Below, piece after piece: positions 7,893-55,069 of a DNA stretch of 64,000 nt. The first letter of the stretch is position 1; each line of letters begins with the position of its first letter. The notes under the pieces were generated by a model. It made no database searches, was not told the DNA's origin, and was given only the letters and a program-made list of their open reading frames with translations. The DNA is taken from NCBI RefSeq assembly GCF_057098645.1, contig NZ_CM169472.1; one strand, given 5' to 3'. The position numbers and the translations under genes were made by a program.

Positions 7893-8127
7893 GATCGCTC
7901 CATATTTTTAAGAACAGGTTATCCACAGAAATTGGGAAAGGCGTTTTCCGGTTTTTTCGTTTCGTTTTCCGGTGCTTTCCGCAATCGCCATCCGCTTATC
8001 CACAACGCCGCACCTTTTTCGTGGGGAGCTGTAGTAGCAATTATAGTCGATTAATACAACATATTGGGTTGGGATGCATTTTAAAGTCTATATATAGTGC
8101 TTTGCATCAAGGATGTTTGAACTTTTT

Positions 8128-8141
8128 TTGATGTAGCTCAA
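8128..8141 (-). promoter_or_regulatory. possible FNR-type half-palindromic site upstream of nrdD
   Basis: ttgatgtagctcaa approximates TTGAT-N4-ATCAA; nrdDG is known to be anaerobically induced. Confidence 0.25.
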
Positions 8142-8285
8142 AGTAAAAAGCAGAGCGTACGGATGACGGGCGCTACAGCGTTATGTAAATTTTTTAATGA
8201 ATTTGCTGGTTGAAAAATCAACAAAAACAACATGCTGACAGACAAAACCCCGGAATGACAGGCATTACCGGGGCTTAGCGAAGAT

Positions 8286-37922: not shown

Positions 37923-38007
37923 GCCGAAGTGGCGAAATCGGTAGACGCAGTTGATTCAAAATCAACCGTAGAAATACGTGCCGGTTCGAGTCCGGCCTTC
38001 GGCACCA
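37923..38007 (+). tRNA. leuX: tRNA-Leu (anticodon CAA)
   Basis: 85-nt sequence GCCGAAGTGGCGAAATCGGTAGACGCAGTTGATTCAAAATCAACCGTAGAAATACGTGCCGGTTCGAGTCCGGCCTTCGGCACCA with long variable arm. Confidence 0.95.
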
Positions 38008-39613: not shown

Positions 39614-39817
39614 ATGCTTCCAATTAGGTTAAAAAAAGCCCGATTGAATGCTGGGTTAACTCAAGAACAGTTGGGAATACTTGTTGGCATTGATGAATGC
39701 TCTGCCAGTGCTCGCATGAATCAATATGAGAAAGGTAAACATATGCCCGATTTTTCACTTACTAAAAAAATCGCTGATTTATTAAATGTCCCTGTCTCAT
39801 ATTTTTACACACCCTAA
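39614..39817 (+). CDS. XRE-family HTH protein, candidate restriction-modification controller (C protein)
   Basis: 67-aa ORF LKKARLNAGLTQEQLGILVGIDECSASARMNQYEKG..., SD aagagga upstream; precedes a putative R gene. Confidence 0.55.
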   Translation: MLPIRLKKARLNAGLTQEQLGILVGIDECSASARMNQYEKGKHMPDFSLTKKIADLLNVPVSYFYTP

Positions 39818-39911
39818 GATGACTTGGCAGAAATTATTTTGTTGATTAATAAACTAGACAAAAAACAGCGGTTAATTTTATTAAAAAATTTATCAGATGG
39901 ATTTATAAGTC

Positions 39912-40730
39912 ATGAATAAGCAAGAAGTTATACTTAAAGTGCAGGAGTGTGCTGCGTGGTGGATTTTGGAGAGACAAAGTAAACTAACAAAGTTAATGTC
40001 AGAAACAATGTCCATAAATCCGTTTATGACCCCTTTTATTTTTGATTATCATTCCCTTAATGATTTTGATGAACTAGTTGAAGCAATAATTGCTAAGCAT
40101 TTAATGACTGGGCATGATACTGGCTTTGGAAAATTGATTGATGAAAAAATACTTCCTAGAGTGTTTGGTGCATATAAATTAGATAAAAGTTATAGAGCTG
40201 CCAACGAGCCTTTTATACACCCTTGCTTTGATGAAATAGATCATGTAATACAAAGGGATGATGGTAGAATTGAGCTTTTATCTCTTAAGGCAGGGAAATG
40301 GACTATTCAATTGACGATGGCTGTCCAACTAAATAAAGCATTTCACGAAATCATAAATAATTATCCTGGAGTGGCTGACAATATAGTGGTTGGGGTTTTT
40401 TATGGAAATAGCCATGGATTAACTGATAAGTATAGAATCTTACGAGGTATCAATACTGGTGCAAACCACAATGTGATTGATATTCGTGACAAAGTGCATG
40501 TATATGCTGGTAAAGAATTTTGGTCATGGCTTAACAATGGTGAGGCTGAAACCCAGCATTGGGTACTTGAAGGTATAGAACGTGCTGTAAAAGAAGCAGA
40601 TATAAAAGAAAAAAATAAAGATCTTATTGAAAAATTCAAAGAACATGTTGCAAAGAAGTACAATGAGCAAGTTCTAAATGCTGATGGCACAGCTCAATGG
40701 CACAAATTACTTGAAATGATTAATGAATAA
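39912..40730 (+). CDS. uncharacterised protein, candidate type II restriction endonuclease (by context)
   Basis: 272-aa AT-rich ORF convergent with a C5-MTase and preceded by a C-protein-like HTH; possible PD-(D/E)xK-like segment DEIDHVIQRDDGRIELLSLK. Confidence 0.4.
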   Translation: MNKQEVILKVQECAAWWILERQSKLTKLMSETMSINPFMTPFIFDYHSLNDFDELVEAIIAKHLMTGHDTGFGKLIDEKILPRVFGAYKLDKSYRAANEPFIHPCFDEIDHVIQRDDGRIELLSLKAGKWTIQLTMAVQLNKAFHEIINNYPGVADNIVVGVFYGNSHGLTDKYRILRGINTGANHNVIDIRDKVHVYAGKEFWSWLNNGEAETQHWVLEGIERAVKEADIKEKNKDLIEKFKEHVAKKYNEQVLNADGTAQWHKLLEMINE

Positions 40731-40767
40731 AAAACTGGCCTAAGGGCCAGTTTTTTTATGACTAATT

Positions 40768-42021
40768 CTAAACTTCTTCTTCAAGGTCGTAGTAAGAAAC
40801 ATCTCCACTATATGCTTGACCATTTTTAAAGAAAGATCTGGTTCTAATATGCGGTCTAATATGGGTTTCTATATAATCTGGAGTTACTAAATCAGCAACC
40901 TTATTTTCTTGTATACGATGAAGAAGTTCCATAGCAGCTTCCCCTGCAACTTTACCTAACCGGACAGGAACTGCGTTACCTATCTGTCTGAATTTTTCTG
41001 TAGTTGTACCTTCAAATTTCCAGTAATCAGGAAACTCTTGTATCGCGGCAGCTTCACCAACAGAAATAGCTCTAAGTTCAGTTGGGTGGCACATACTTGT
41101 TCCCGCATGATTTGGCATTGTTACTACTGTGGGTGAAGGAAACTGGAAAGATAGTTTCCTCCAGTAAGCACTTCTTCCTCCTTTAAGATACCAGCTTTTT
41201 CCCATAGATTCTTTTTGCATTTCTTCTGGCATGCTTCTCCAGTTTCCGCCAGGTGGAACCATTGAAAGATATTTCAGTTTTCTTGGCGAAAAATTCATGA
41301 CTTCTGGATATTTATCAACAAAACCGCTCTCTGGGCCAATTACATCCCCCAGCGTTTTGAATGGCGGAAGATTATCTTCTACTCTATTGCTGAATAAAGG
41401 GGAGGCGAAATTGGCTATCATTCCGAAGCGATTACCAATTAAAATAACACGCTCCCTAATTTGTGGGGCTCCATAGTTGGCAGCATTAACTACAAAGCAA
41501 TCCACATGATAACCTAGTTTATTGAATTCGTTAGCTACCCTTTTTATTAGAGAGCCTTTTTCGAAAGCAGATGCTGCGATTGTGCCTGATAGCTCCTTCT
41601 TTTTAGAAGCTGGAACTATAGACATTGATAATAAACCGCGTACGTTTTCCATTACGAAAACTTTTGGGTTTAATTCTTTAATCATTCGAACGTATTCGAA
41701 AATAAGCTGCCCTCTGGCATCTTCTAGCCCTAACCTATTTCCAAAAACACTAAATGCTTGGCACGGTGGACCGCCAGCAACTAAATCTATTTCTTCTTTA
41801 TCATTCACTCCGGCTAGTGCTAATAATTCAGAGCCAGTGCAGTCAACAATACTACCTTCGAATACAGCAAGATTTGGCTTATTAGTTTTAATTGTTTTTA
41901 GAGCTGCCTTATCTTGTTCAACGCAAGCTACGAGCTCAAAGCCAGCCTCTTCGAGACCTAAGTCTAACCCCATTGCGCCACTAAATAGCGAAATAAACTT
42001 TTTACTAGACAAAATAATCAC
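40768..42021 (-). CDS. DNA (cytosine-5)-methyltransferase
   Basis: 417-aa ORF with motif I FSGAMG, motif IV GGPPCQAFS, motif VI ENV. Confidence 0.85.
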   Translation of the reverse strand: MIILSSKKFISLFSGAMGLDLGLEEAGFELVACVEQDKAALKTIKTNKPNLAVFEGSIVDCTGSELLALAGVNDKEEIDLVAGGPPCQAFSVFGNRLGLEDARGQLIFEYVRMIKELNPKVFVMENVRGLLSMSIVPASKKKELSGTIAASAFEKGSLIKRVANEFNKLGYHVDCFVVNAANYGAPQIRERVILIGNRFGMIANFASPLFSNRVEDNLPPFKTLGDVIGPESGFVDKYPEVMNFSPRKLKYLSMVPPGGNWRSMPEEMQKESMGKSWYLKGGRSAYWRKLSFQFPSPTVVTMPNHAGTSMCHPTELRAISVGEAAAIQEFPDYWKFEGTTTEKFRQIGNAVPVRLGKVAGEAAMELLHRIQENKVADLVTPDYIETHIRPHIRTRSFFKNGQAYSGDVSYYDLEEEV

Positions 42022-42337
42022 CTACATACTTAGCAGCCAAATACTAGGATATTGTAAAGGATTAACACTAATCCTCAACTCAAGTTTCAGGGATCTTAGC
42101 AGAATCTGCTTTGCAAGGATTCTATGAATGTAAATTAATAGATACTGGCGCGCAGTGCTTTCCCCGCCTCGCCCGCCCGCTTTGCAGGGCGGTTTTAATG
42201 CAGTTGCACAGTCACGCTCAGGCTGCGCCGGGAATGGCGCGGTCTGCAGAGAATGAGGCAGGAAAACGCATGCAAAGCCATGCACCTTATCGATGCATGG
42301 CTTTTTTCAGTAAAAACGGGAGGATTTTCGGGGAATT

Positions 42338-42910
42338 TTACACAGACTGACGTGATGCCAGTTGCGCACTTTTACGCGAAAAAATCATGTTCTGCGCAGG
42401 GGTGAATTTTTCACGGCTGTCATCCACCGAAGCCGCGTCAGGCCTGAATCCGATGGTCGTTAAAATGTCGCTATCCTGTGCGGAATAATTAATTTTTTCA
42501 CCCTTCGCAAGCCAGGACAGGAGGGCTTCACGCAGGGCATCTGTGGCACGCTGTATGGCACAGTTTCGGGCAATGGCCGTCAGCTCACTGTAGCCCATCA
42601 GCTCCGGTGCCAGTGCCGCCGCCAGTGCTGTGCCGTGCTGCTGCATAAAATCATTCAGCCGATCGCGGATGCTGATGTGCTGAACGGCTTCATGCGAACG
42701 AATATAACGACCGGCGGCCTGATTCACCTGCCATTTTCTGACTTCGATAATATTGCGTAATTCGTCCAGGCGACTGACGTTTCTGCCTTCTCCTGACAGA
42801 AGCCGCAGATATTCCTGTTCGGCCGCAGCCAGCTCATTTTTGCGTTGCAGCCATGCTGCTTTGTTATTCTGACAGGTGTCAAAGGCCTGCTGTAAGGCTG
42901 TGCTTTCCAT
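42338..42910 (-). CDS. psu: P4-like polarity suppression protein Psu
   Basis: 190-aa ORF at the end of the sid-delta-psu operon, length and position as in P4. Confidence 0.7.
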   Translation of the reverse strand: MESTALQQAFDTCQNNKAAWLQRKNELAAAEQEYLRLLSGEGRNVSRLDELRNIIEVRKWQVNQAAGRYIRSHEAVQHISIRDRLNDFMQQHGTALAAALAPELMGYSELTAIARNCAIQRATDALREALLSWLAKGEKINYSAQDSDILTTIGFRPDAASVDDSREKFTPAQNMIFSRKSAQLASRQSV

Positions 42911-42983: not shown

Positions 42984-43484
42984 TCATTCCAGACGCAGCG
43001 AATATGATTGTGTTTTTAACCGTACTGGCGGCAGTTCCTGTTTTTCATGCAGGCTTTCTGCCAGTTCGTCCGGCGTGACCGGGCGGACAATGAAGCGGTT
43101 GATGGTCTGAAGCGTTTTAAACACCAGACCACAGCCCGGATCCGTGCACACATAAAAACGCTCGGTGACTTCCTGAGACAGACGCCGCGATGTTCTTGAC
43201 AGCGCAAGGCCTTTACATCTCCGACAACAATATCCGGTAACAAGCATTCTTTTCGGGCGCTTCATGCTACCGGAGGCTGACGTCAGTGAATCGCGGTATC
43301 TCTGTTTGCCTGAAATGTATTCCATTCCTGAATCTTTACAGTCAGAGAAAAAGCTTTCACTCGCTTCAAATGTCGCAGAGCAATAAATATTCCGGCACTG
43401 TGCAATCATTATCTTGGTGCCATCGTCCATGAAATGTGCGCGACGGGTGTGAGCAACATGTCCACACGACGGGCAGTAAATCAT
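42984..43484 (-). CDS. delta: P4-like Delta late-gene activator (tandem Ogr-type zinc finger)
   Basis: 166-aa ORF with two CxxC...CxxxxC zinc-finger units (CPSCGH...CRNIYC and CCRRC...CTDPGC). Confidence 0.8.
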   Translation of the reverse strand: MIYCPSCGHVAHTRRAHFMDDGTKIMIAQCRNIYCSATFEASESFFSDCKDSGMEYISGKQRYRDSLTSASGSMKRPKRMLVTGYCCRRCKGLALSRTSRRLSQEVTERFYVCTDPGCGLVFKTLQTINRFIVRPVTPDELAESLHEKQELPPVRLKTQSYSLRLE

Positions 43485-44215
43485 GACAGCAGTCCTCTGG
43501 CCTTAAGCACTGCTCCCTGCTGGTCTATTTTGTCCTGCCACACCTTGCGCTGTGCCGGTGTGCCTGCCACCTCATAATCCATGTGCGGGAGTGTTGCCGC
43601 TGACAGTCCGGTCAGCCGGAGAACCGGCTCGCCGGTGAGGCTGATTTGCATCTGTTTTATTTTCTGTTCCAGCGATGATTTCACCTGCTGCATGACAGCT
43701 TTATCGGGTGCGACGTAGCCCTGATGCCCGGTGGTGTTGGCGAGCGGATTTTCCTGTACCAGAATGCTCAGATGCATTGCCCGGACAAGCGCCTCACAGG
43801 TTTCATTCAGGGCGTGTTCCAGCTCATGCTCTGCATACAGACTCAGAAGGTGATGATGTGCCTTCCGGTAGGCGGTGGCCGTGCTGTCACACGCCCCTTT
43901 CAGGCGTTCACGTTCGAAATTCAGCACCACGGCCAGATTGTCATATTCCTGTACCAGCTCCCGGCGTGCCACGCGCTCAATGTGGCGCTGTTTCAGCTCG
44001 TCGCTCAGGACACCACCGGCTGCACGAAAGGCCGTGCGCCAGTCGTCAGCGTCGTTTCCGTCGGCCTGCGCCAGCGCATTTTTTTCCTGCTCTGCCCGTT
44101 CAATGGCCGTGACGGTCTCATCCATCAGTCGGGCGTTCTCAAGGTGGGCGGCTCTGGCCTTTTCCAGTTGTGCCAGTGCGGGTTGCAGATATTCAGGGAT
44201 GGTGTTGTCAGACAT
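43481..44215 (-). CDS. sid: P4-like Sid capsid size determination protein
   Basis: About 244-aa coiled-coil ORF upstream of delta; start assumed at MSDNTIPEYL. Confidence 0.7.
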   Translation of the reverse strand: MSDNTIPEYLQPALAQLEKARAAHLENARLMDETVTAIERAEQEKNALAQADGNDADDWRTAFRAAGGVLSDELKQRHIERVARRELVQEYDNLAVVLNFERERLKGACDSTATAYRKAHHHLLSLYAEHELEHALNETCEALVRAMHLSILVQENPLANTTGHQGYVAPDKAVMQQVKSSLEQKIKQMQISLTGEPVLRLTGLSAATLPHMDYEVAGTPAQRKVWQDKIDQQGAVLKARGLLS

Positions 44216-44287
44216 TTTCCGGCTCCTCGTCACTTCAGGTTAAGAAAATTGTGACGTACACCGGACAACAACACGACGCATTGCAGA

Positions 44288-44305
44288 TGTGCCAGCCCTG
44301 ACACA
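44288..44305 (-). promoter_or_regulatory. TGT-N12-ACA dyad, candidate Ogr/Delta activator site of the sid late promoter
   Basis: tgtgccagccctgacaca about 70-90 bp upstream of the sid start, matching the P2/P4 late promoter activator-site pattern. Confidence 0.45.
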
Positions 44306-44384
44306 GGAGACTCATCCTCAGACCGGCAAGCCAGGAAAAGGTCGCAGGAAAAACCGGCTTACTGTTTGTTTTTTTATATTTTAC

Positions 44385-44478
44385 TGTTCACCTCTGTTCA
44401 CCATAAGAAAAAAGATAAGTAATACAGTAAGTTAAATGGTGAACAATCGCAGTAATGACTGTTCACCGTCTGTTCACC
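44385..44478. repeat. P4 ori-like cluster of TGTTCACC iterons (alpha-binding type I repeats)
   Basis: Five TGTTCACC/GGTGAACA octamers within 95 bp. Confidence 0.6.
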
Positions 44479-44804
44479 CGTTGATGGACTTTTTGTGCTG
44501 TTTACTACTGTTTATTTTTATTAATTCACTGAAATAAATAAGAAAAAACAATTTGTATTTCACTATAATTTTTTCCAGCTCCTTCCAGAGCGTTTTAAAG
44601 CTATCTGGCGCTGATATACAAAAAATGCACAGCCATTGTAAGGCTGCCGGAACAAATCCCCCCTGTTGCGTCTGCCAAAAATATTCACAAAATAAAGCGC
44701 TACCCGAAGCCGGACGGACTTATCCGGTGCTGTATGGACATTAACGAGGTAGCCCGATGCAAGCTGTTTTTTCTTCCCCGTCTCCCGCCCCTGTGACGCC
44801 ACTG

Positions 44805-45023
44805 ATGCCGCTGCCGGACATCACGCAGGAGCGTTTTTTACGTCTGCCGGAAGTGATGCACCTGTGCGGCCTGTCACGCTCGACCATCTATGAACTCATC
44901 CGTAAGGGGGAATTTCCGCCGCAGGTGAGTCTTGGCGGTAAAAATGTGGCCTGGCTGCACTCTGAAGTCACCGCATGGATGGCCGGACGCATTGCCGGAC
45001 GCAAACGGGGGTACGACGCATGA
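44805..45023 (+). CDS. AlpA/Vis-family phage transcriptional regulator
   Basis: [51 protein letters not shown] matches AlpA-type HTH. Confidence 0.75.
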
Positions 45024-45412
45024 TAGTGCCCGCTCTGCAAAAACTCCCTTTTTCTGGCTTGCCTTTTTCCGGCATTTGCGGATATAGTTTTTCCGCTGCC
45101 GCAAAATCGGCAGCCGGGCGTGAGAACCCGTGTAGCTCGAAGGCGACATATGACGCGCCATGCGTCTTTTTTTGTGTCGCAATCAACGCCACAGAGCGCC
45201 AGATTATGGTGTGGCGTGTGGTTTGCCGTGCAGGTATGATCCTGTTCGCAATCGCATGTTATGCCACTGAGTCAATGGTAGCTCAGGCGGGGCAGCCTCC
45301 GGGCTGGCCGGTATTCTTCGAGGCCGGTATTCTCACCCCCGTCTGGGCTATCGCCATCGAGCGTGAGAACTCCGGCGATAGCAGTTATTTGCTACTCGAA
45401 GGAGGCTGCCTT

Positions 45413-45610
45413 ATGGCTACAACCCTTACCCCCTCACACCCTGAATTTGTCTTTGTGTTTGCGGCTGTCCGTCGCGCAGACCGTCATCCCCGTATCTGCA
45501 TGCTTCGCACCGTCGCCGGTGATGAACGCAGCGCCCGCCGTTCCCTTGTCCGTGACTATGTGCTCTCCCTTGCTGCCCGTCTGCCGGTGGTGGAGGTGTC
45601 CCGTGCGTAA
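45413..45610 (+). CDS. small hypothetical protein of the P4-like early region
   Basis: 65-codon ORF with strong SD ggagg 8 nt upstream; the longer listed ORF 44975..45610 is rejected. Confidence 0.35.
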
Positions 45611-45915
45611 TAAAAGCCCCTCAGACCGTCTCAGCGCGTCATGACGCCCGTGAACACCTCAGCATTGAGGCTTACCATAAGCTCAACCGCGCCAGCGCCG
45701 TATCCCGGTTTGTTGCAAAATGGCATCTGAATCGATCGCAGTTTGGCATTCGAATCGATCATGATTTGGCATCCATCTCCGATCACAGTTTGGCATCACA
45801 ATCGATCACGATTTGGCATGCTTCCGATCATTGATTGGCATCCTGCCAGTCACTCCGGGAATTAACTCTTTTCACCACAGTCTCCATTGCCGTGTTTAAA
45901 CCAGTGGAGACGTCA

Positions 45916-47481
45916 ATGTCCAGAAAGAGAAAATCCAGGAGCACTATGGAAACCTGTTTTAAGATCCTTCAGCTCAAGTTCGACAAGAAGCTGACTAACC
46001 GTTGTATCGGACTGACGTTACACATCAGCGCCTCAACCGTTTTTGAGGTTCTTGCCCGCTTCAAAGCCTCTTCTCTGTCATGGCCATTACCTGCTGATAT
46101 ATCCCATGACACGCTGGAGAAACTCATTTTTCCGCCCAAAGACACCTTTGCATCAGAGCTTGTAATGCCTGACATGTTGTACTTCGATACGGAAATGAGA
46201 AAACCAGGTGTGACGCGGCAACTGTTGTGGATGGAATACAAGGCACAGGCGGGTAACAAAGCGATGGGATACTCGCACTTCTGCCGTTGCTACCGGGAGT
46301 GGAAAAAAACGCGACGTCTCTCCATGCGCCAGGAGCATCGTGCCGGCGAAAAGCTTTTTATCGACTTCTGTGGTCCTACGGTTCCTGTTATTAATCCGGA
46401 CACCGGTGAGATACGCCGCGTGGCAATCTTCGTGGCCGTAATGGGGGCGTCCAACTATACCTACGTTGAAGCGTGCGAAGGTCAGGACATGATGTCATGG
46501 TTAAATGCCCACAGCCGTTGCCTGACCTTCCTGGGCGGCGTACCGAAGCTGCTCATCCCCGATAACCTCAGAAGCGCAGTGAAAAAGGCCGATCGATATG
46601 AGCCTGTCATCAACGACAGTTATCAGGCACTGGCTGAGCACTATGGCACGGTTATCATCCCGGCCCGACCACGCAAACCTAAAGATAAACCAAAAGCAGA
46701 AAACGGCGTCCTCATCGTTGAACGATGGCTTCTTGCCCGCATCCGTAATGAAACCTTCCACACGCTCAGGGCGCTGAATGCGCGCCTTAGGGAGTTACTG
46801 ACAGACATGAATAACCGGCCAATGAAGGGGTACGGCAATCAAACCCGTGCAGAACGCTTCCGCATACTGGATGCGCCAGCACTCTCTCCGCTGCCTCTGG
46901 CACCTTATGAATACACGGAATACAAAGCTGTGAAGGTTGGCCCTGACTACCACGTTGAATATGCCCGTCACTGGTACTCCGTTCCACACGAACTGGTCGG
47001 TCAGCGTCTGTCACTGAAGGCGGGGCAGTCGGTGGTACAGCTCTGGCACAAGGGGCAGTGTGTGGCGCAACATCCGCGCAGCACACATGAATATAAACAC
47101 ACAACCAATCCGCTTCACATGCCAGAGCGCCACCGGCAGCACGGGACATGGACACCGGAACGCCTGATCGAGCAGGGAAAACGTACGGGCCCGTCCACAG
47201 GCCGGGTGGTTGAATCCATGCTGAAGGCAAAACCCCATCCGGAACTGGCTTATCGTGCAGTTCTGGGGCTGCTGGCACTTCAGAAAAAATACGGCCCGGA
47301 ACGGCTGGAAAAGGCCTGTTACGTTGCCCTGCACTATAACGCCCCTGACAGACGCTTTATCGACAATCTGCTGCGTCACCATCGGGAGAACCTGGAGCTT
47401 CCATTATCCCGCCAGGGCGAACAACATCCGGCATATGCTTCAGAGCATGAAAACCTGCGTGGTCCGGGCTACTACCACTGA
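45916..47481 (+). CDS. istA: IS21-family transposase IstA
   Basis: About 520-aa ORF with N-terminal HTH and DDE-type core, followed by istB. Confidence 0.75.
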   Translation: MSRKRKSRSTMETCFKILQLKFDKKLTNRCIGLTLHISASTVFEVLARFKASSLSWPLPADISHDTLEKLIFPPKDTFASELVMPDMLYFDTEMRKPGVTRQLLWMEYKAQAGNKAMGYSHFCRCYREWKKTRRLSMRQEHRAGEKLFIDFCGPTVPVINPDTGEIRRVAIFVAVMGASNYTYVEACEGQDMMSWLNAHSRCLTFLGGVPKLLIPDNLRSAVKKADRYEPVINDSYQALAEHYGTVIIPARPRKPKDKPKAENGVLIVERWLLARIRNETFHTLRALNARLRELLTDMNNRPMKGYGNQTRAERFRILDAPALSPLPLAPYEYTEYKAVKVGPDYHVEYARHWYSVPHELVGQRLSLKAGQSVVQLWHKGQCVAQHPRSTHEYKHTTNPLHMPERHRQHGTWTPERLIEQGKRTGPSTGRVVESMLKAKPHPELAYRAVLGLLALQKKYGPERLEKACYVALHYNAPDRRFIDNLLRHHRENLELPLSRQGEQHPAYASEHENLRGPGYYH

Positions 47482-47497
47482 CAGAAGGAACAACAGT

Positions 47498-48253
47498 ATG
47501 AGTGATAACCTGTTAAACAAACTGACCCAACTGAAACTCCCGGCGATGGCCGGGAGCCTGATACGGCAGCGGGAAACGCCTCAGACCTACGACGAACTGT
47601 CGTTCGAGGAAAGGCTGACGCTGCTGGTTGATGACGAGCTTCTGAGCAGGGAAAACAGCCGTGTGGCACGGTTGAGAAAAAATGCCGGCCTGAAATACCA
47701 GGCAACACCGGAAGGGCTGCGCTATCCGGCCTCAAGAGGTCTGCGGGCTGAACAGATGAGAGAACTGCTGAACGGCCACTACATAACCCACAGGAAAAAC
47801 CTGCTGATAACCGGTCCGACAGGATGTGGCAAGAGCTGGATAGCCAATGCGCTGGGCGAACAGGCATGTCGACAGAAACACAGCGTCCGGTACTGTAGAA
47901 CCGGGCGATTACTGGAACAACTGGCTCAGGGACGTGTTGATGGCAGCTGGCTGAAATATCTGAAACAGTTGCAAAAAATACAGGTTCTAATCCTGGACGA
48001 TCTGGGGCTGGAACAGTTAAGTAACGCCCAGTGTAATGACCTTCTGGAGCTCATAGAGGATCGTTACGGACAAAGCAGCACGATAGTGGTAAGCCAGTTC
48101 CCGGTAGATAAATGGCATGGTCTGATGGAGAACCCAACAACAGCAGATGCCATCCTGGACAGACTGGTACATAACTCACACCGAGTGGTCCTTCAGGGAG
48201 AGTCACTGAGGAAAAATCCCCCGGTAGTGGAAAGCAGCGAAAAAACGCGTTAA
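47498..48253 (+). CDS. istB: IS21-family ATP-binding helper IstB
   Basis: Walker A GPTGCGKS, Walker B ILDDLG, C-terminal ILDRLVHNSHRVVLQGESLR as in IstB. Confidence 0.8.
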   Translation: MSDNLLNKLTQLKLPAMAGSLIRQRETPQTYDELSFEERLTLLVDDELLSRENSRVARLRKNAGLKYQATPEGLRYPASRGLRAEQMRELLNGHYITHRKNLLITGPTGCGKSWIANALGEQACRQKHSVRYCRTGRLLEQLAQGRVDGSWLKYLKQLQKIQVLILDDLGLEQLSNAQCNDLLELIEDRYGQSSTIVVSQFPVDKWHGLMENPTTADAILDRLVHNSHRVVLQGESLRKNPPVVESSEKTR

Positions 48254-48525
48254 AAAGCGGTAGAAAAAGTTAAGTTCCCGGTTGATCGAATGGATGCGAA
48301 TCGCTGATCGGACTTCGATGCCAATCCGTGATCGAATAGAGCGGAATACGCAGTTTGTTGGGGGTGATTTGATTCACCGTGAACTCTCCGGCCTGCATCA
48401 GCTCTACATTCCGCATATTTTCAGTTACCTGAATGAAGATATTGATTTTGTGCTGAATGAACTGAAAGCCAAAGGCCTGTGCCGCGATTTTCTCGCCCAG
48501 CAGAAAGACCGGGGAGACAGGACGC

Positions 48526-48981
48526 ATGTTTGATTTTCCCCAGCCCGGTGAGATTTACCGTTCTGCCGGTTTTCCCGATGTGGCCGTGGTCGGCATTCTG
48601 GAAGACGGTATTCCGTGGGAAATGCCGTACCGCTGCCCGGACATTGTCTGGAACCCGTACCGCCGTAAATTCAGTATCCTTGTGCGTATCCTCGCTGACG
48701 GGCGCACCACAGACATCCCGCTGGGGCGTTTTCTGCGGGAATTTACCTGTGACCGTCCTGACCTGTTTAAACGCAGCCCCGTAAACCGGCATGCGGTACT
48801 GAAAGAAATGGCCGGAGACCCGGAATTACAGAAATGGCGGGAGAAATATCTGGATATTTACCCGCAGGACCCTGTTCCGGTCAGCCGGGCGGCACCGGTG
48901 GCGCGGGAATGGCGGGAAATTCCCCGCACGGAGCCTGACCCGGAAATCACCCCGGATAACAGTTACCGCAATTATCTGTAA
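48526..48981 (+). CDS. P4-like early-region protein (orf151 equivalent)
   Basis: 151-aa ORF upstream of alpha in the same orientation. Confidence 0.5.
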   Translation: MFDFPQPGEIYRSAGFPDVAVVGILEDGIPWEMPYRCPDIVWNPYRRKFSILVRILADGRTTDIPLGRFLREFTCDRPDLFKRSPVNRHAVLKEMAGDPELQKWREKYLDIYPQDPVPVSRAAPVAREWREIPRTEPDPEITPDNSYRNYL

Positions 48982-49116
48982 TTAAAAAACGACACCCGAA
49001 AAATTAAATGTGCGTATTCGCGCAGGGATACGCACGTCTTCAGGAGACGCAGATATGCCTTATCAGTTAATGCAACCGGCACGGAATGCAGTCATCTGTC
49101 ACAGGGAGGAAAACAA

Positions 49117-49437
49117 ATGAAAACACCCTTACCGCCCGTCTTACGCGCTGCCCTTTACCGTCGCGCTGTCGCCTGTGCCTGGCTGACCGTGTGCGAACGT
49201 CAGCACCGCTACCCGCATCTCACCCTTGAGTCACTGGAAGCGGCCATCGCCGCTGAGCTGGAAGGCTTTTATCTGCGCCAGCACGGTGAGGAAAAAGGGC
49301 GTCAGATAGCCTGTGCCCTGCTGGAAGATTTAATGGAATCCGGCCCCCTGAAGGCCGCGCCGTCGCTGTCCTTTCTCGGGCTGGTTGTGATGGATGAACT
49401 CTGTGCCCGTCACATAAAAGCGCCGGTACTGCACTGA
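49117..49437 (+). CDS. P4-like early-region protein (orf106 equivalent)
   Basis: 106-aa ORF immediately upstream of alpha. Confidence 0.5.
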
Positions 49438-49451
49438 AGGAGAACAACACC

Positions 49452-51785
49452 ATGAAAATGAACGTAACCGCCACCGTCAGCCATGCGCTCGGCCACTGGC
49501 CGCGTATTCTCCCGGCGCTGGGGATTCAGGTGCTGAAAAACCGTCATCAGCCCTGTCCGGTCTGTGGCGGGAGTGACCGCTTCCGTTTTGATGACAGGGA
49601 GGGGCGCGGCACCTGGTACTGCAATCAGTGTGGTGCCGGTGACGGCCTGAAACTGGTTGAAAAGGTGTTTGGTGTCTCCCCGTCCGACGCGGCCGCAAAG
49701 GTGGCTGCCGTGACCGGCAGCCTGCCCCCGGCTGACCCGGCAGTGACGGCTGCCGCCGGTGCTGAAACAGACGCTGCCCGGAAGAACGCCGCCGCACTGG
49801 CACAAACCCTGATGGCGAAAACCCGTCCCGGAACCGGTAACGCCTACCTGACCCGCAAGGGCTTTCCCGGCCGGGAATGCCGGATGCTGACCGGCACACA
49901 CAGATCCGGTGGCGTGAGCTGGCGTGCCGGTGACCTTGTGGTGCCACTGTATGACGACAGCGGCGAACTGGTTAACCTTCAGTTAATCAGTGCTGACGGC
50001 CGTAAGCGCACCCTGAAAGGCGGACAGGTCAGGGGCACCTGTCACACCCTTGAAGGACAGAATCAGGCCGGAAAACGTCTGTGGATAGCGGAGGGATACG
50101 CGACCGCACTTACCGTACATCACCTGACCGGTGAAACGGTGATGGTGGCGCTTTCTTCCGTGAACCTCCTTTCTCTGGCCAGCCTTGCCCGGCAGAAGCA
50201 TCCGGCCTGTCAGATTGTCCTTGCCGCAGACCGTGACCTCAGCGGTGACGGCCAGAAAAAAGCCGCCGCAGCCGCAGATGCGTGTGAGGGCGTTGTTGCC
50301 CTGCCGCCGGTCTTCGGTGACTGGAATGATGCCTTCACGCAGTACGGCGGGGAGGCCACCCGTAAGGCCATTTACGATGCCATCCGGCCACCGGCTGAAA
50401 GCCCGTTCGACACCATGAGCGAAGCAGAGTTTTCCGCCATGAGTACCAGCGAAAAGGCCATGCGTATCTATGAGCATTACGGCGAGGCGCTCGCGGTTGA
50501 TGCCAACGGCCAGCTTCTGTCCCGTTATGAAAATGGTGTCTGGAAGGTGCTGCCGCCACAGGACTTTGCCCGGGATGTGGCCGGGCTGTTTCAGCGTCTG
50601 CGCGCGCCGTTCTCCTCCGGGAAGGTGGCCTCCGTGGTGGACACCCTGAAGCTGATTATTCCGCAGCAGGAAGCCCCCTCCCGCCGCCTGATTGGCTTTC
50701 GTAACGGCGTGCTCGACACGCAGAACGGCACGTTCCACCCGCACAGTCCGTCACACTGGATGCGCACCCTGTGCGATGTGGATTTCACCCCGCCGGTGGA
50801 CGGTGAAACGCTGGAGACCCACGCCCCCGCGTTCTGGCGCTGGCTTGACCGTGCCGCCGGTGGCCGTGCGGAAAAACGCGACGTGATTCTGGCCGCACTG
50901 TTTATGGTGCTGGCAAACCGCTATGACTGGCAGCTCTTTCTGGAGGTGACCGGTCCCGGCGGCAGCGGCAAAAGTATCATGGCCGAAATAGCCACCCTGC
51001 TGGCCGGTGAGGATAACGCCACGTCGGCCACTATTGAGACGCTGGAATCCCCGCGTGAACGTGCCGCGTTAACTGGCTTCTCACTGATACGCCTGCCGGA
51101 CCAGGAAAAATGGAGCGGCGACGGTGCCGGACTCAAGGCCATCACCGGCGGCGATGCGGTGTCCGTGGACCCGAAATACCGGGATGCGTACTCCACGCAT
51201 ATCCCGGCGGTGATTCTGGCCGTGAACAATAACCCGATGCGCTTCACCGACCGCAGCGGCGGCGTGTCACGCCGGCGGGTGATTATTCACTTCCCGGAAC
51301 AGATAGCCCCGCAGGAGCGCGACCCGCAACTTAAGGACAAAATCACCCGCGAGCTGGCGGTCATCGTGCGTCACCTGATGCAGAAGTTCAGCGACCCGAT
51401 GCTCGCCCGGTCACTGCTTCAGTCCCAGCAGAACTCAGACGAGGCACTGAACATCAAACGGGATGCCGACCCGACGTTTGATTTTATCGGCTATCTGGAA
51501 ACCCTGCCGCAGACCAGCGGCATGTATATGGGGAACGCCAGTATCATCCCGCGTAATTACCGTAAATACCTCTATCACGCCTATCTGGCCTACATGGAGG
51601 CAAACGGCTACCGGAATGTACTCAGTCTGAAAATGTTCGGGCTGGGGCTGCCGGTGATGCTGAAGGAATACGGGCTGAATTACGAGAAGCGCCATACCAA
51701 ACAGGGGATACAGACCAACCTGACGCTGAAAGAGGAAAGCTACGGCGACTGGCTGCCAAAATGTGACGACCCTGCAACAACCTGA
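49452..51785 (+). CDS. alpha: P4-like alpha primase-helicase
   Basis: 777-aa ORF with N-terminal zinc-binding primase motif (CPVCGG...CNQCG), Walker A GPGGSGKS, P4 position. Confidence 0.85.
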   Translation: MKMNVTATVSHALGHWPRILPALGIQVLKNRHQPCPVCGGSDRFRFDDREGRGTWYCNQCGAGDGLKLVEKVFGVSPSDAAAKVAAVTGSLPPADPAVTAAAGAETDAARKNAAALAQTLMAKTRPGTGNAYLTRKGFPGRECRMLTGTHRSGGVSWRAGDLVVPLYDDSGELVNLQLISADGRKRTLKGGQVRGTCHTLEGQNQAGKRLWIAEGYATALTVHHLTGETVMVALSSVNLLSLASLARQKHPACQIVLAADRDLSGDGQKKAAAAADACEGVVALPPVFGDWNDAFTQYGGEATRKAIYDAIRPPAESPFDTMSEAEFSAMSTSEKAMRIYEHYGEALAVDANGQLLSRYENGVWKVLPPQDFARDVAGLFQRLRAPFSSGKVASVVDTLKLIIPQQEAPSRRLIGFRNGVLDTQNGTFHPHSPSHWMRTLCDVDFTPPVDGETLETHAPAFWRWLDRAAGGRAEKRDVILAALFMVLANRYDWQLFLEVTGPGGSGKSIMAEIATLLAGEDNATSATIETLESPRERAALTGFSLIRLPDQEKWSGDGAGLKAITGGDAVSVDPKYRDAYSTHIPAVILAVNNNPMRFTDRSGGVSRRRVIIHFPEQIAPQERDPQLKDKITRELAVIVRHLMQKFSDPMLARSLLQSQQNSDEALNIKRDADPTFDFIGYLETLPQTSGMYMGNASIIPRNYRKYLYHAYLAYMEANGYRNVLSLKMFGLGLPVMLKEYGLNYEKRHTKQGIQTNLTLKEESYGDWLPKCDDPATT

Positions 51786-52320: not shown

Positions 52321-52344
52321 GTTTGAGTCCGGCCTTCGCACCAC
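52321..52344 (+). repeat. degenerate direct repeat of the tRNA-Leu 3' end (attR-like island boundary)
   Basis: gtttgagtccggccttcgcaccac versus tRNA 3' end gttcgagtccggccttcggcacca. Confidence 0.55.
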
Positions 52345-53020: not shown

Positions 53021-55069
53021 ATGTATGGAAAAATGGAAAAAGTTTATGATACCACTAGAATTAGTAATCTTGCTAACGACCCGAAACAGTTTTGTTCTTT
53101 TTTTTGTGAGTACATAAAAAGAGATGATATTAGTATAGATATCGCCTTGGATGTGCTGAGAATATCTTCCATCTATTATAATAGATTTTCAGTTCAGACT
53201 GAAGTTGAGTATAACAATACATTCAAAAAATGTATTAATGAGCTAGTAAACTCATTTCCTGATAACATTGAACTAATTTCTGAGTTCGAGAGTCAATGTA
53301 AAATTATGCATGATATAAATAATTCTTTCTTTGCGGCTACAAAATGTGCTGGTATTTGGCGTGAAAATACAAAAAAATCACATGCATTAATACTTAATCT
53401 CATCATGTTTTGTGAGATGTTTTTATCATCATTATCATCCTTGGTTGTGGTCAATGATCCTAAAAAAATGAAGAGGATTTTTCCATTATTTATCGTTTCT
53501 GAAAATATTAATATTCATGCTGAACCTGATATCGAATATTTTCGAGTTATCGATAGGGCATTTGATGAGGTAGCCAATTACACCGGAAGAATATTTTCTT
53601 ATTTACGGACTCATGAGCCATTGAAACTAACTTCTTGTGTGAATAAACAAACCTTGCTTTCAATGGGAGGGTACCTTAATGAGTGGAATGTTTTTGACTC
53701 ATTAAGCAGAGTAAGAGACTTTTTCAGACTAAGTAGTGCAGTATTTACAAAATTGGATAATAACATTTACTCTCTTGAGGTTGATAGTTTTTGTTTATAC
53801 CGAGATTATGAGATTGCAAGAAATAGACTAATGATGAGAGCGTCACATCTATATAGCGAAGTTCATGAATTTAGTAACAAACATTTTCATCTAAATAGTT
53901 GGGTAAAGGATCATATGCCATCTTACTTAAATTCTGATGGCGTTTTTAGCTCATTTCATCTAAGCGAGTTGGAAAATATGTCTCCTGATGACCTTCATGA
54001 AGAATATGGGAATATATCATTATTTAATTGGGTGCACGCTTATCAATGTTTAGTCGAGTTATCTAAAGAAGAAATGAGCAAAAGATTTTCATCGACAAAA
54101 CCTATACCCCTACAGTTGGATCGCTGGCTGATCATAAAAAGCCGTGAGAGTTGGTTATCATTCTTTCAACGTAAGGGGATTGCAGCAGATGCAGCAAAAA
54201 AACTGATAGATTATTTTACCTTCAATTCAAAATCACATGATCTTAATGATTGCCCATTTATTCCCTGTATGGACGGTTTATGCTTAATGCCTGCATTCAT
54301 AGCAAATAGCTCAGTGACTCGCTCTCTAATGTCATTATTTGGTTCCAAAAAAATTTCTCAAGCAAGTAAAGGGCGATTTCATGAGCAACAATTTATAAAA
54401 CAAGTTCGTGATGCGGGGATTAAAGCTTCTCCAATTGATGCTCATGCTAATTATCAGTGCGATTGCGTGATTCTCCTGGATGATTGTTTGATTTTTACAG
54501 AACTAAAATCAAATGGTCAACCAATATATTATGGTAAGTACTATCAGCAAGTGTGTAACATCGTTGGAGATAGCTCATTAATACATGATCATAATAATAA
54601 ATTTATGCGTTCTTATTTTCAACAAATAAATCGAACTTCTGAACATTATCTTAATCATCTTGATGTGATCATTAAAGAATTCGAACTACCATCAACATGG
54701 CAACCCAAAGGTGTGTATAAGCTTATTGTTACTACAACTATGCTCGGTGGGAAATATCATGTGGATGATACATATGTAGCGGACAAATATGCATTATCTA
54801 GTTTTTTTCAACGAATACCTGGAGTGATATATCAAACAAATGAAAATGGAGAAATGGCGAAAAATATCATTGATGGGTTTGAGTGTTGCGAAGGGGAAAT
54901 CACTATCGATAAGTTTATAGATTATCTTTCCTCTTTGCCCGGTATTAATGCTGTACGTAAAAATATACAAAAATTAACTTATAGTGTTCGATTTAATGAA
55001 AAACTAGTCCATCACCCTTATTATGATTCTTGGGCTTTTGGCCCATATATTCGTAAGGGAAATGATTAG
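53021..55069 (+). CDS. large AT-rich hypothetical protein, no recognisable motif
   Basis: 682-codon uninterrupted ORF in an island of low GC; standalone gene flanked by long noncoding regions. Confidence 0.55.
   Translation: MYGKMEKVYDTTRISNLANDPKQFCSFFCEYIKRDDISIDIALDVLRISSIYYNRFSVQTEVEYNNTFKKCINELVNSFPDNIELISEFESQCKIMHDINNSFFAATKCAGIWRENTKKSHALILNLIMFCEMFLSSLSSLVVVNDPKKMKRIFPLFIVSENINIHAEPDIEYFRVIDRAFDEVANYTGRIFSYLRTHEPLKLTSCVNKQTLLSMGGYLNEWNVFDSLSRVRDFFRLSSAVFTKLDNNIYSLEVDSFCLYRDYEIARNRLMMRASHLYSEVHEFSNKHFHLNSWVKDHMPSYLNSDGVFSSFHLSELENMSPDDLHEEYGNISLFNWVHAYQCLVELSKEEMSKRFSSTKPIPLQLDRWLIIKSRESWLSFFQRKGIAADAAKKLIDYFTFNSKSHDLNDCPFIPCMDGLCLMPAFIANSSVTRSLMSLFGSKKISQASKGRFHEQQFIKQVRDAGIKASPIDAHANYQCDCVILLDDCLIFTELKSNGQPIYYGKYYQQVCNIVGDSSLIHDHNNKFMRSYFQQINRTSEHYLNHLDVIIKEFELPSTWQPKGVYKLIVTTTMLGGKYHVDDTYVADKYALSSFFQRIPGVIYQTNENGEMAKNIIDGFECCEGEITIDKFIDYLSSLPGINAVRKNIQKLTYSVRFNEKLVHHPYYDSWAFGPYIRKGND

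Follow-up and report, generated by a model that had tools for sequence, protein, structure and literature searches.

An IS21-family insertion sequence within the epsilon gene of a P4-like satellite prophage at leuX

An istA-istB element stands in the early region of a P4-like satellite prophage on contig NZ_CM169472.1 (NCBI RefSeq assembly GCF_057098645.1), and its position raises the question of what the satellite has lost: a derepression gene, its immunity control or the ability to leave the chromosome. The original prediction, made from the letters of the window (the whole stretch of DNA analysed, 64,000 nucleotides), placed the element between an AlpA-like gene region and the alpha operon and suggested that any of the three might have been affected. 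The best explanation, and a highly probable one, is that an IS21-family element transposed into the epsilon gene of the satellite and left the immunity RNA and the other genes unharmed.

The satellite prophage at leuX

In the window, leuX is occupied by a P4-like satellite prophage that runs from attL at 37988 to attR at 52343. Its present length is 14,337 bp, which falls to 11,692 bp once the insertion sequence and one copy of its target duplication are subtracted. The core set of int, psu, delta, sid, alpA/vis, epsilon and alpha is present in the order known from P4, with six of these genes at full length and epsilon in two fragments. The parts of the satellite outside epsilon and the RNA immunity circuit are the following.

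37923-38007, plus strand: tRNA-Leu(CAA) gene leuX, the P4 integration target (ARAGORN)
37988-38007: attL core GAGTCCGGCCTTCGGCACCA, the same letters as the P4 attP core (reverse complement of P4 4078-4097)
38172-39446, plus strand: satellite integrase, intact; 424/424 aa identical to WP_000772662.1 of E. coli O157:H7 BB24-1, with a PRK09692 integrase domain
39614-42021: cargo of the int-psu hotspot, a type II restriction-modification system
39614-39919: HTH gene of the cargo, with a premature stop at codon 68
39996-40730, plus strand: restriction endonuclease of the cargo, intact
40768-42021, minus strand: C5 methyltransferase of the cargo, intact
42159-42198: cos region, with exact 15-mers of the P4 cos junction
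42338-42910, minus strand: psu, full length
42984-43484, minus strand: delta, full length
43481-44215, minus strand: sid, full length
44757-45023, plus strand: vis/alpA, intact; aligned to P4 ORF88, 88/88 aa identical to WP_001149160.1
45020-45610, plus strand: Ash/Icd-like ORF (the old P4 'cI ORF'), full length and overlapping the immunity region; PF10554 at 76.7 bits, 196-aa full-length match to the relative
48526-48981, plus strand: orf151, full length
49117-49437, plus strand: cnr/orf106, full length
49452-51785, plus strand: alpha primase-helicase, full length
52325-52343, plus strand: attR core GAGTCCGGCCTTCGCACCA, 19 nt, of the same form in the O157 relative

The closest relative is the leuX satellite of E. 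coli O157:H7 BB24-1 (NZ_CP038402.1; locus L008). Compared with it, all of int, vis, psu, delta, sid, orf151, cnr and alpha are intact and of full length; cos and the two att cores are intact as well. In tblastn comparisons with this relative, psu, delta and sid align over their full length and free of gaps at 97.5-98.9% identity, and the three genes also align to those of P4. The stretch from orf151 through cnr to alpha (48526-51785) is 99% identical to P4 at the DNA level and 98-100% identical to the O157 relative at the protein level, with a match to DUF5375. The two satellites share site, cargo and gene set and are 98.4-98.8% identical over the whole element; however, the O157:H7 copy is IS-free and has an intact 95-aa epsilon (WP_001244670.1), a run of six A residues in that gene and an intact HTH gene. 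The attR core, shorter by one base, was considered as a defect that might lock the element in place and was rejected, since the IS-free O157 relative carries an identical attR.

Phage P4 itself (NC_001609 / X51522) shows the same order, psu-delta-sid on one side and vis, immunity region, epsilon, orf151, orf106 (cnr) and alpha on the other, together with the same attP core and the same leuX target. Identity to P4 at the DNA level is 92.8% from sid to epsilon and 99% from epsilon codon 37 to alpha. The differences are that epsilon is intact in P4, that P4 has gop-beta-cII where the element described here has a type II restriction-modification system, and that the P4 genome is 11.6 kb long as opposed to 14.3 kb.

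The insertion sequence and the gene it splits

The insertion sequence, its target duplication and the two parts of epsilon are arranged as follows.

45603-45713, plus strand: epsilon codons 1-38, the 5' fragment (aligned with P4 and a pair of E. coli relatives)
45708-45713: left copy of the target-site duplication GTTTGT, which is single-copy in P4 and the relatives
45714-48352, plus strand: IS21-family insertion sequence (ISSso4 family according to PGAP), 2,639 bp, TG...CA termini
45734-45841, plus strand: five direct terminal repeats (GATCNNNGWTTGGCAT) with a period of about 23 nt, left end of the insertion sequence
45946-47481, plus strand: istA, transposase, 511 aa; NF033546 at 284.6 bits (cutoff 160), zero differences from WP_045147483.1
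47498-48253, plus strand: istB, AAA+ helper ATPase, 251 aa; NF038214 at 257.8 bits (cutoff 200), zero differences from WP_001282653.1
48294-48333, minus strand: two inverted copies of the terminal repeat, right end of the insertion sequence
48353-48358: right copy of the target-site duplication GTTTGT
48353-48533, plus strand: 3' fragment of epsilon, codons 37-95 and stop (P4 epsilon alignment; PF25738 positions to 95)

The istA-istB identification made from the sequence alone is confirmed by both profile matches, which lie above their cutoffs. A long istA is followed directly by a short, co-oriented istB, the gene layout of the IS21 family, in which istA encodes a DDE transposase with an N-terminal HTH; a Walker A motif (GPTGCGKS) and a Walker B motif (VLILDD) can be read in the translation. 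The ends, TGCAAAATGGC...GAATACGCA, conform to the family pattern of TG...CA termini with imperfect inverted repeats and were placed where five copies, namely this one and four independent E. coli copies, cease to be similar. These boundaries leave the interior of the predicted element (45711-48533) standing and correct its limits: the predicted start lies 3 bp too early and the predicted end, which is that of a fused reading frame, 181 bp too far. The length of 2,639 bp and the 6-bp duplication fall within the ranges used for the family (about 2-2.7 kb and 4-8 bp, respectively). The repeated terminal motif noticed at the outset, ...TTTGGCAT, holds up in its extended form GATCNNNGWTTGGCAT, which occurs seven times in the window with one mismatch allowed, against 0.2 occurrences expected, and exclusively within the ends of the insertion sequence. 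These repeats are presumed to be IstA binding sites.

The element is common in E. coli: copies in many records are 99.7-100% identical, and the query was matched in 2,344 of 5,426 genomes. ISSso4-family copies on plasmid pGF60-C of E. coli GF60 and in the GPEC1040 chromosome have the same length, TG...CA ends, terminal repeats, 6-bp duplication and identical IstA (WP_045147483.1) and IstB (WP_001282653.1) proteins; the insertion site is the sole difference, and insertion into epsilon was found only here among the records searched. The present copy is intact and, judging from its intact ends and the identity of its proteins to those of many dispersed copies, apparently active.

When the sequence is aligned with P4 and IS-free relatives, the insertion falls between codons 37 and 38 of epsilon, a gene of 95 codons. 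The left flank corresponds to P4 8063-9596 and the right flank to P4 6921-8068, with a 6-bp overlap (8063-8068) inside the epsilon coding sequence (7888-8175). The duplication is perfect, and 6 bp are also duplicated at three other copies of the same insertion sequence. Apart from a 2-bp deletion, the healed sequence from which the insertion has been removed is colinear with the P4 sequence and those of two E. coli satellites lacking the insertion, and the uninterrupted site was found in 959 E. coli genomes. An early gene of the satellite is thus interrupted, as had been proposed, and it is epsilon; the element lies inside the operon and within a coding sequence, neither between the AlpA-like region and the operon nor in a nonessential spacer beside wholly intact early genes. 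The same insertion was absent from 5,426 complete E. coli genomes, from GTDB species representatives and from JGI metagenomes, and within these collections the event is private to its source.

Epsilon carries a second lesion. Four A residues (45612-45615) replace the six of the A-run at codons 4-5, and the resulting frame, read from the GTG start, terminates at 45642-45644. Among the 975 E. coli genomes in which the segment is present, not one has this deletion, and no in-frame ATG, GTG or TTG that could rescue the frame lies between the upstream stop and the insertion sequence. Owing to its position in a homopolymer run, the deletion could be a sequencing error. Intact relatives match the Derepression family PF25738 over positions 1-95 at 170 bits; here a single frame covers about positions 37-95 at 106 bits, the frameshifted 5' part lies 2.6 kb away, and a single epsilon frame of about 95 aa that matches the profile end to end is absent. 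Epsilon is thus dead twice over, split by the insertion sequence and shifted out of frame by a private deletion.

RNA immunity and the mobility of the satellite

The immunity circuit occupies the region upstream of epsilon and comprises the following elements.

45059-45088, plus strand: P_LE-like promoter (TTGCCT-18-TATAGT) at the position of P4 P_LE, conserved with P4
45082-45172, plus strand: immunity leader with seqA target and isrK-like hairpins; Rfam c4-a1b1 at 50.4 bits (GA 46.7), isrK at 69.2 bits (GA 50)
45115-45127: seqA core, complementary to CI
45152-45166: leader terminator
45271-45358, plus strand: CI immunity RNA of the C4 antisense family, intact; Rfam RF01695 at 74.3 bits (GA 45), full model 1-87
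about 45326-45341: seqB
45358-45370, plus strand: seqC, the downstream target of CI RNA, repeating seqA in direct and the CI loop in inverted orientation

CI RNA acts together with seqA and seqC to cause premature termination and thereby blocks the expression of the replication genes (PMC4825925). The complementarity among seqA, seqB and seqC is preserved, the P_LE-like promoter is the sole sigma-70-like site found in 44200-49600, and the whole circuit lies upstream of the insertion sequence, at least 340 bp away from it. The suggestion that immunity control had been inactivated is not supported by this comparison, in which every part of the circuit proved intact: the P_LE-like promoter, the isrK-like leader, CI RNA, seqA and seqC. 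The suspected loss of derepression, on the other hand, does hold in the sense of helper derepression, because the interrupted gene is epsilon.

These observations bear directly on the idea that the insertion disrupted the satellite's own immunity or derepression control and locked it in the chromosome. It is true that the element sits past the immunity region, in the early (left) operon, that polarity on alpha would block replication after excision, and that the satellite is oversized by 2.6 kb. Nevertheless, the idea is very unlikely to be correct, given that the circuit is intact and lies 5' of the insertion, that int, vis/alpA and both att cores are likewise intact, and that epsilon targets the repressor of the helper and not the excision of the satellite (PMC2995052), for which it has no known role. 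The only grounds for supposing impaired mobility are a possible polar effect on alpha and the size of 14.3 kb.

The fusion frame, remaining readings and consequences

Downstream of the insertion, epsilon contributes to a further open frame.

48282-48533, plus strand: chimeric frame of 83 codons, made up of 24 codons of the right end of the insertion sequence and epsilon codons 37-95

This frame begins 71 nt inside the right end and continues into the flanking DNA, in agreement with its initial description as insertion-sequence DNA joined to a disrupted early gene; the partner is the 3' part of epsilon, whose stop overlaps the start of orf151 (ATGTTTGA). Its existence invites a reading in which the insertion has rewired the operon. 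Transcripts that start in or pass through the insertion sequence would lack seqA and seqC and escape termination by CI RNA, giving low, immunity-independent expression of the epsilon remnant, orf151, cnr and alpha, and the chimeric frame might encode a truncated antirepressor. Consistent with this, istAB is co-oriented with the operon, plus-strand terminator-like sites are absent from the left end of the insertion sequence to orf151, and the open frame retains epsilon residues 37-95, its 106-bit match to PF25738 and the overlap with orf151. However, a scan recognised no promoter in or at the right end, and no Shine-Dalgarno sequence precedes either TTG 48282 or ATG 48294. Furthermore, the PF25738 profile covers 95 residues, of which the 36 conserved N-terminal ones are missing, and the istA promoters of single-copy IS21-type elements are weak. 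An exact look-up of four possible products of the frame in public assemblies returned no record, and a search for a solved structure of epsilon from which the dispensability of residues 1-36 could be judged found none. Rewiring is very unlikely; the frame itself is an accidental by-product of the insertion and not a gene.

A selective reading holds that the loss of epsilon was favoured as domestication, sparing the host the lethal induction of a helper prophage while the restriction-modification cargo was kept. It would account for two independent private lesions in epsilon beside otherwise full-length satellite genes and for the intact endonuclease and methyltransferase. Neutral decay after a first hit predicts two lesions in one gene equally well, though, the event is known from a single source, no helper prophage was identified within the 64-kb window, and the HTH gene of the cargo carries a nonsense codon; domestication is very unlikely. 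Even taken together, the two alternatives, an uncoupling of the replication genes from RNA immunity, possibly with a truncated antirepressor, or a selected domestication of a defence-carrying satellite, are improbable. An artefact, in which the assembler misplaced a copy of an element that is multi-copy in E. coli genomes, as might be suspected from a junction absent from the other collections searched, or in which the 2-bp deletion is a homopolymer error, is extremely improbable. The perfect duplication of the usual length and the exact rejoining of the flanks into an uninterrupted gene indicate real transposition and confine the argument from artefact to the deletion in the A-run.

Under the preferred explanation, an intact and common E. 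coli IS21-family element transposed into epsilon and generated its usual 6-bp duplication. The epsilon product, antirepressor E, binds P2 C (PMC2995052), and epsilon derepresses the P2 prophage (PMC7552001). An engineered P4 in which epsilon has been knocked out stays silent until epsilon is supplied (PMC12239096). The present satellite would be unable on its own to derepress a resident P2-like prophage, but a helper that infects the cell or is induced independently could still activate it via Cox and delta. Epsilon mutants of P4 can make use of a P2 prophage even so, by delta transactivation, and the phenotypic cost of the loss may therefore be modest.

Two further effects would stem from the inserted DNA. 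The co-oriented 2.6-kb insert probably exerts polarity on orf151, cnr and alpha. P_LE and P_LL are the only promoters that serve these genes in P4, and replication after activation is thus likely reduced; since no plus-strand intrinsic terminator was found in the insertion sequence and istAB is co-oriented, read-through into orf151-cnr-alpha is possible. The 14.3-kb genome is probably too large for the small capsid determined by Sid, which fits 11.6 kb (PMC7552001). A literature search for the largest DNA that a P4-sized capsid can hold found no figure, and the one study consulted on this point states just a minimum of about 5 kb (PMC2231350).

A functional parallel is the engineered P4-EKORhE (PMC12239096), in which native epsilon was likewise inactivated, the rest was kept and propagation needs epsilon from elsewhere; there, however, the knockout is a small deliberate deletion, without an insertion sequence or a gain in size, and no polarity is expected. 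The natural event described here is ordinary mobile-element decay, part of known biology and unsurprising to a specialist. Among the cryptic prophages of E. coli K-12, CP4-6, CP4-44, CP4-57 and KpLE2 (at leuX) are islands with P4-type integrases at tRNA genes that bear IS insertions and gene losses. They are far more degraded, whereas the element at hand has lost one core gene only.

For annotation, the value of the analysis lies in the corrected boundaries of the insertion sequence and in the naming of the interrupted gene as epsilon, encoding antirepressor E. It also calls for caution, as surveys that use PF10554 (Ash) as a marker of epsilon would score this element as complete: that profile misleads because it matches the neighbouring ORF, the true epsilon being PF25738. 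For the P4 family, the locus offers a natural example of the onset of decay in a near-complete satellite, in which the helper-induction gene went first, through an insertion sequence and a frameshift.

Insertion of an IS21-family element into epsilon

The original prediction held that an IS21-type element disrupts an early gene of the P4-like satellite, with derepression as a candidate lost function. Both points are borne out by alignment to P4 and IS-free satellites, which identifies the interrupted gene as epsilon (encoding the antirepressor E) and locates the insertion at codons 36–38, with GTTTGT as the target duplication. The left flank (44200–45713) aligns to P4 8063–9596 with 92.8% identity and the right flank (48353–49500) to P4 6921–8068 with 99.0% identity, the six bases P4 8063–8068 being common to both matches. 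P4 epsilon, annotated as "helper derepression protein" (95 aa), occupies 7888–8175 on the strand of these matches. Joining the flanks minus one GTTTGT copy yields a sequence colinear with P4 epsilon, where the duplication spans the third position of codon 36, all of codon 37 and the first and second positions of codon 38 (...S R F V G G...). A 2-bp deletion aside, the healed gene aligns without gaps to the IS-free satellites of E. coli CNREC_004-43 and O157:H7 BB24-1. Because the flanks rejoin into an uninterrupted gene of P4 and these relatives, the alignments place the IS inside the epsilon coding sequence, and neither in a spacer nor in the immunity determinant. The 6-bp duplication marks genuine transposition and speaks against misassembly.

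Features of the insertion
45714–48352: IS, 2,639 bp, TG...CA termini as in the family, ends from a five-copy comparison
45734–45841: IS terminal repeats, direct, five copies, ~23-nt period
48294–48333: IS terminal repeats, inverted, two copies
48282–48533: fusion frame, 83 codons, from the ORF listing

The ORF listing shows two consecutive plus-strand genes within 45.8–48.3 kb. IstA (511 aa, identical to WP_045147483.1) matches the NCBIfam equivalog NF033546 for the IS21 transposase (284.6 bits; cutoff 160), and IstB (251 aa, identical to WP_001282653.1) matches NF038214 for the IS21 helper ATPase (257.8 bits; cutoff 200). The ends were fixed by lining up the window copy with four independent fetched copies, and similarity runs from TGCAAAATGGC to GAATACGCA in all five. 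Direct repeats of 6 bp flank three of the four other copies; the fourth lacks flanking repeats and joins two different phage genes. The repeated tttggcat motif noted earlier is real and specific, as GATCNNNGWTTGGCAT, one mismatch allowed, has seven occurrences in the 64 kb of the window (0.2 expected). The IS is present once in the window. In two of the four copies with target duplications, the window copy (45700–45713 and 48353–48380) and that on the E. coli GF60 plasmid pGF60-C, the target DNA resembles the element's own GATTTGGC terminal motif, an anecdotal likeness which could hint at a target preference.

A megablast search with 45500–48800 found matches in 2,344 of 5,426 complete E. coli genomes, and in the best records the copies of the central ~2.64 kb, assigned to the ISSso4 family in PGAP naming, are 99.7–100% identical. 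The IS is already described, and its proteins are identical to many copies. No record among the 5,426 genomes exceeded 80% query coverage, and hence none carries the IS between these flanks. The insertion is absent from these genomes, GTDB representatives and JGI metagenomes, and the uninterrupted epsilon site was found in 959 complete E. coli genomes; judged from these searches, the insertion event is strain-private.

The fusion frame and a second lesion in epsilon

The 83-codon frame was indeed created by the insertion: it starts with a TTG located 71 nt inward from the right end of the IS, comprises 24 IS-derived codons followed by in-frame epsilon codons 37–95, and terminates at epsilon's own stop codon, which overlaps the start of orf151 (ATGTTTGA). 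It scores 106 bits against Pfam PF25738 (Derepression family), covering the C-terminal part of the profile only, vs. 170 bits for intact epsilon (positions 1–95). Neither a promoter-like site nor a Shine-Dalgarno sequence was found ahead of the frame, and a look-up revealed no record of its product in any public assembly. The frame is interpreted as an accident of the insertion.

Epsilon starts with GTG CGT AAT AAA AAA GCC in all three reference sequences and with GTG CGT AAT AAA AGC in the window, which has A4 instead of A6 at 45612–45615. Translation from the annotated GTG start (45603) therefore ends after 13 codons (stop 45642–45644), and the stretch from the upstream stop to the IS has no ATG, GTG or TTG in the correct frame. 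A 154-nt query across the deletion matched 975 E. coli genomes, all in the 95–99% identity band, and among the matches listed every best one exceeds the query length by two bases, indicating that the deletion is private to this source. As the site is a homopolymer run, a sequencing error is possible.

Immunity circuit, satellite genes and neighbouring loci

A loss of immunity control, proposed earlier, is contradicted by the position of the immunity RNA and its targets, which lie untouched upstream of the IS; all three Rfam matches there exceed gathering scores.

RNA elements and att and cos sites
45082–45134: a1/b1 target of C4 RNA (seqA), Rfam
45095–45172: isrK-like leader, Rfam
45271–45358: C4 antisense RNA family (P4 CI RNA), Rfam, 74.3 bits, full length
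37988–38007: copy of the P4 attP core (attL)
52325–52343: attR core, 19-nt copy, GAGTCCGGCCTTCGCACCA, lacking one G present in attL and the P4 attP core
42159–42198: cos 15-mers

The CI loop (about 45326–45341) is complementary to CGGGCGTGAGAAC at 45115–45127 (seqA) and CGAGCGTGAGAAC at 45358–45370 (seqC), and the sole sigma-70-like site in 44200–49600 (45059–45088) has the position of P_LE in P4. These elements are those of the published immunity circuit, where CI RNA pairs with seqA and seqC and transcription stops before the replication genes (PMC4825925).

A tblastn search with the protein set annotated in the O157:H7 BB24-1 relative shows int, the restriction enzyme, the methyltransferase, psu, delta, sid, vis, the Ash/Icd-like ORF, orf151, cnr and alpha to be full length and gapless; the sole exception is epsilon, present as two fragments that lie in different frames. 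The satellite, integrated at leuX, measures 14,337 bp, or 11,692 bp minus the IS and one duplication copy. The attR missing G was rejected as a lesion, the IS-free O157 relative having the same form, which marks a lineage trait. Locking of the satellite in the chromosome, also suggested originally, does not follow: the satellite retains intact int, vis and att sites, and epsilon has its effect on the helper rather than on excision.

The int-psu interval is a known hotspot for defence cargo in P4-like satellites (PMC8628076), and the window satellite is typical in this respect. Its type II restriction-modification cargo includes a controller-like HTH gene (39614–39919) whose codon 68 is an in-frame TAA in the window and GAA in the O157:H7 relative; the restriction endonuclease (39996–40730) and C5 methyltransferase (40768–42021, minus strand) are 100% identical to the proteins of that relative.

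Loci beyond attR
53021–55069: 682-aa ORF in a 32–34% GC stretch just outside attR
55692–56720, minus strand: HNH-domain protein

The 682-aa ORF, which has no match in Pfam or PADLOC, occupies the place of a partial integrase and transposase in the O157 relative; as it adjoins defence genes, it is a candidate uncharacterised defence gene. The colinear O157 counterpart of the HNH gene carries the annotation phosphorothioated-DNA-binding restriction endonuclease, and the genes that follow (region 55692–60634) are colinear with type II Zorya zorE, zorB2 and zorA2. The HNH and Zorya-like genes and the satellite make up a defence island adjoining leuX. In the holC-pepA intergenic region (30655–30950), blast against the O157 locus gave ~100-bp tandem repeated matches (93% identity, ~98 bp offset); these mark an array of intergenic repeats with no relation to the IS insertion.

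Consequences for the satellite

An intact copy of a widespread IS has transposed into epsilon, which cannot be made, while the rest of the satellite is structurally intact. The antirepressor E has the C repressor of P2 as its binding target and brings about derepression of the helper prophage (PMC2995052, PMC7552001), and an engineered P4 without native epsilon is quiescent until epsilon is supplied (PMC12239096). The window satellite would be unable on its own to awaken a resident P2-like prophage. Polarity of the 2.6-kb insert on the replication genes is likely, because orf151, cnr and alpha lie downstream and in P4 are not known to be transcribed from promoters other than P_LE and P_LL. Read-through from the IS into orf151-cnr-alpha is possible, since the IS genes and the operon are co-oriented and no plus-strand terminator-like site was found between the IS and orf151. 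The replication genes, or a truncated antirepressor, might be expressed from the IS independently of immunity, or domestication of the satellite by its host might have been selected; both readings are improbable. The 14.3-kb satellite probably exceeds the capacity of the Sid-determined capsid, which "fits the 11.6 kb genome" (PMC7552001); no published upper DNA size limit for this capsid was found.

The finding is already-known biology, namely a described IS in a typical P4-like satellite; inactivation of prophage and satellite genes by IS elements is commonplace. PF10554 (Phage_ASH), which served as the "epsilon" marker in a survey of P4-like satellites (PMC8628076), matches the ORF upstream of epsilon (45020–45610), and true epsilon (45603–48533, including the IS) belongs to PF25738. 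A survey by PF10554 would count this epsilon-dead satellite as complete.
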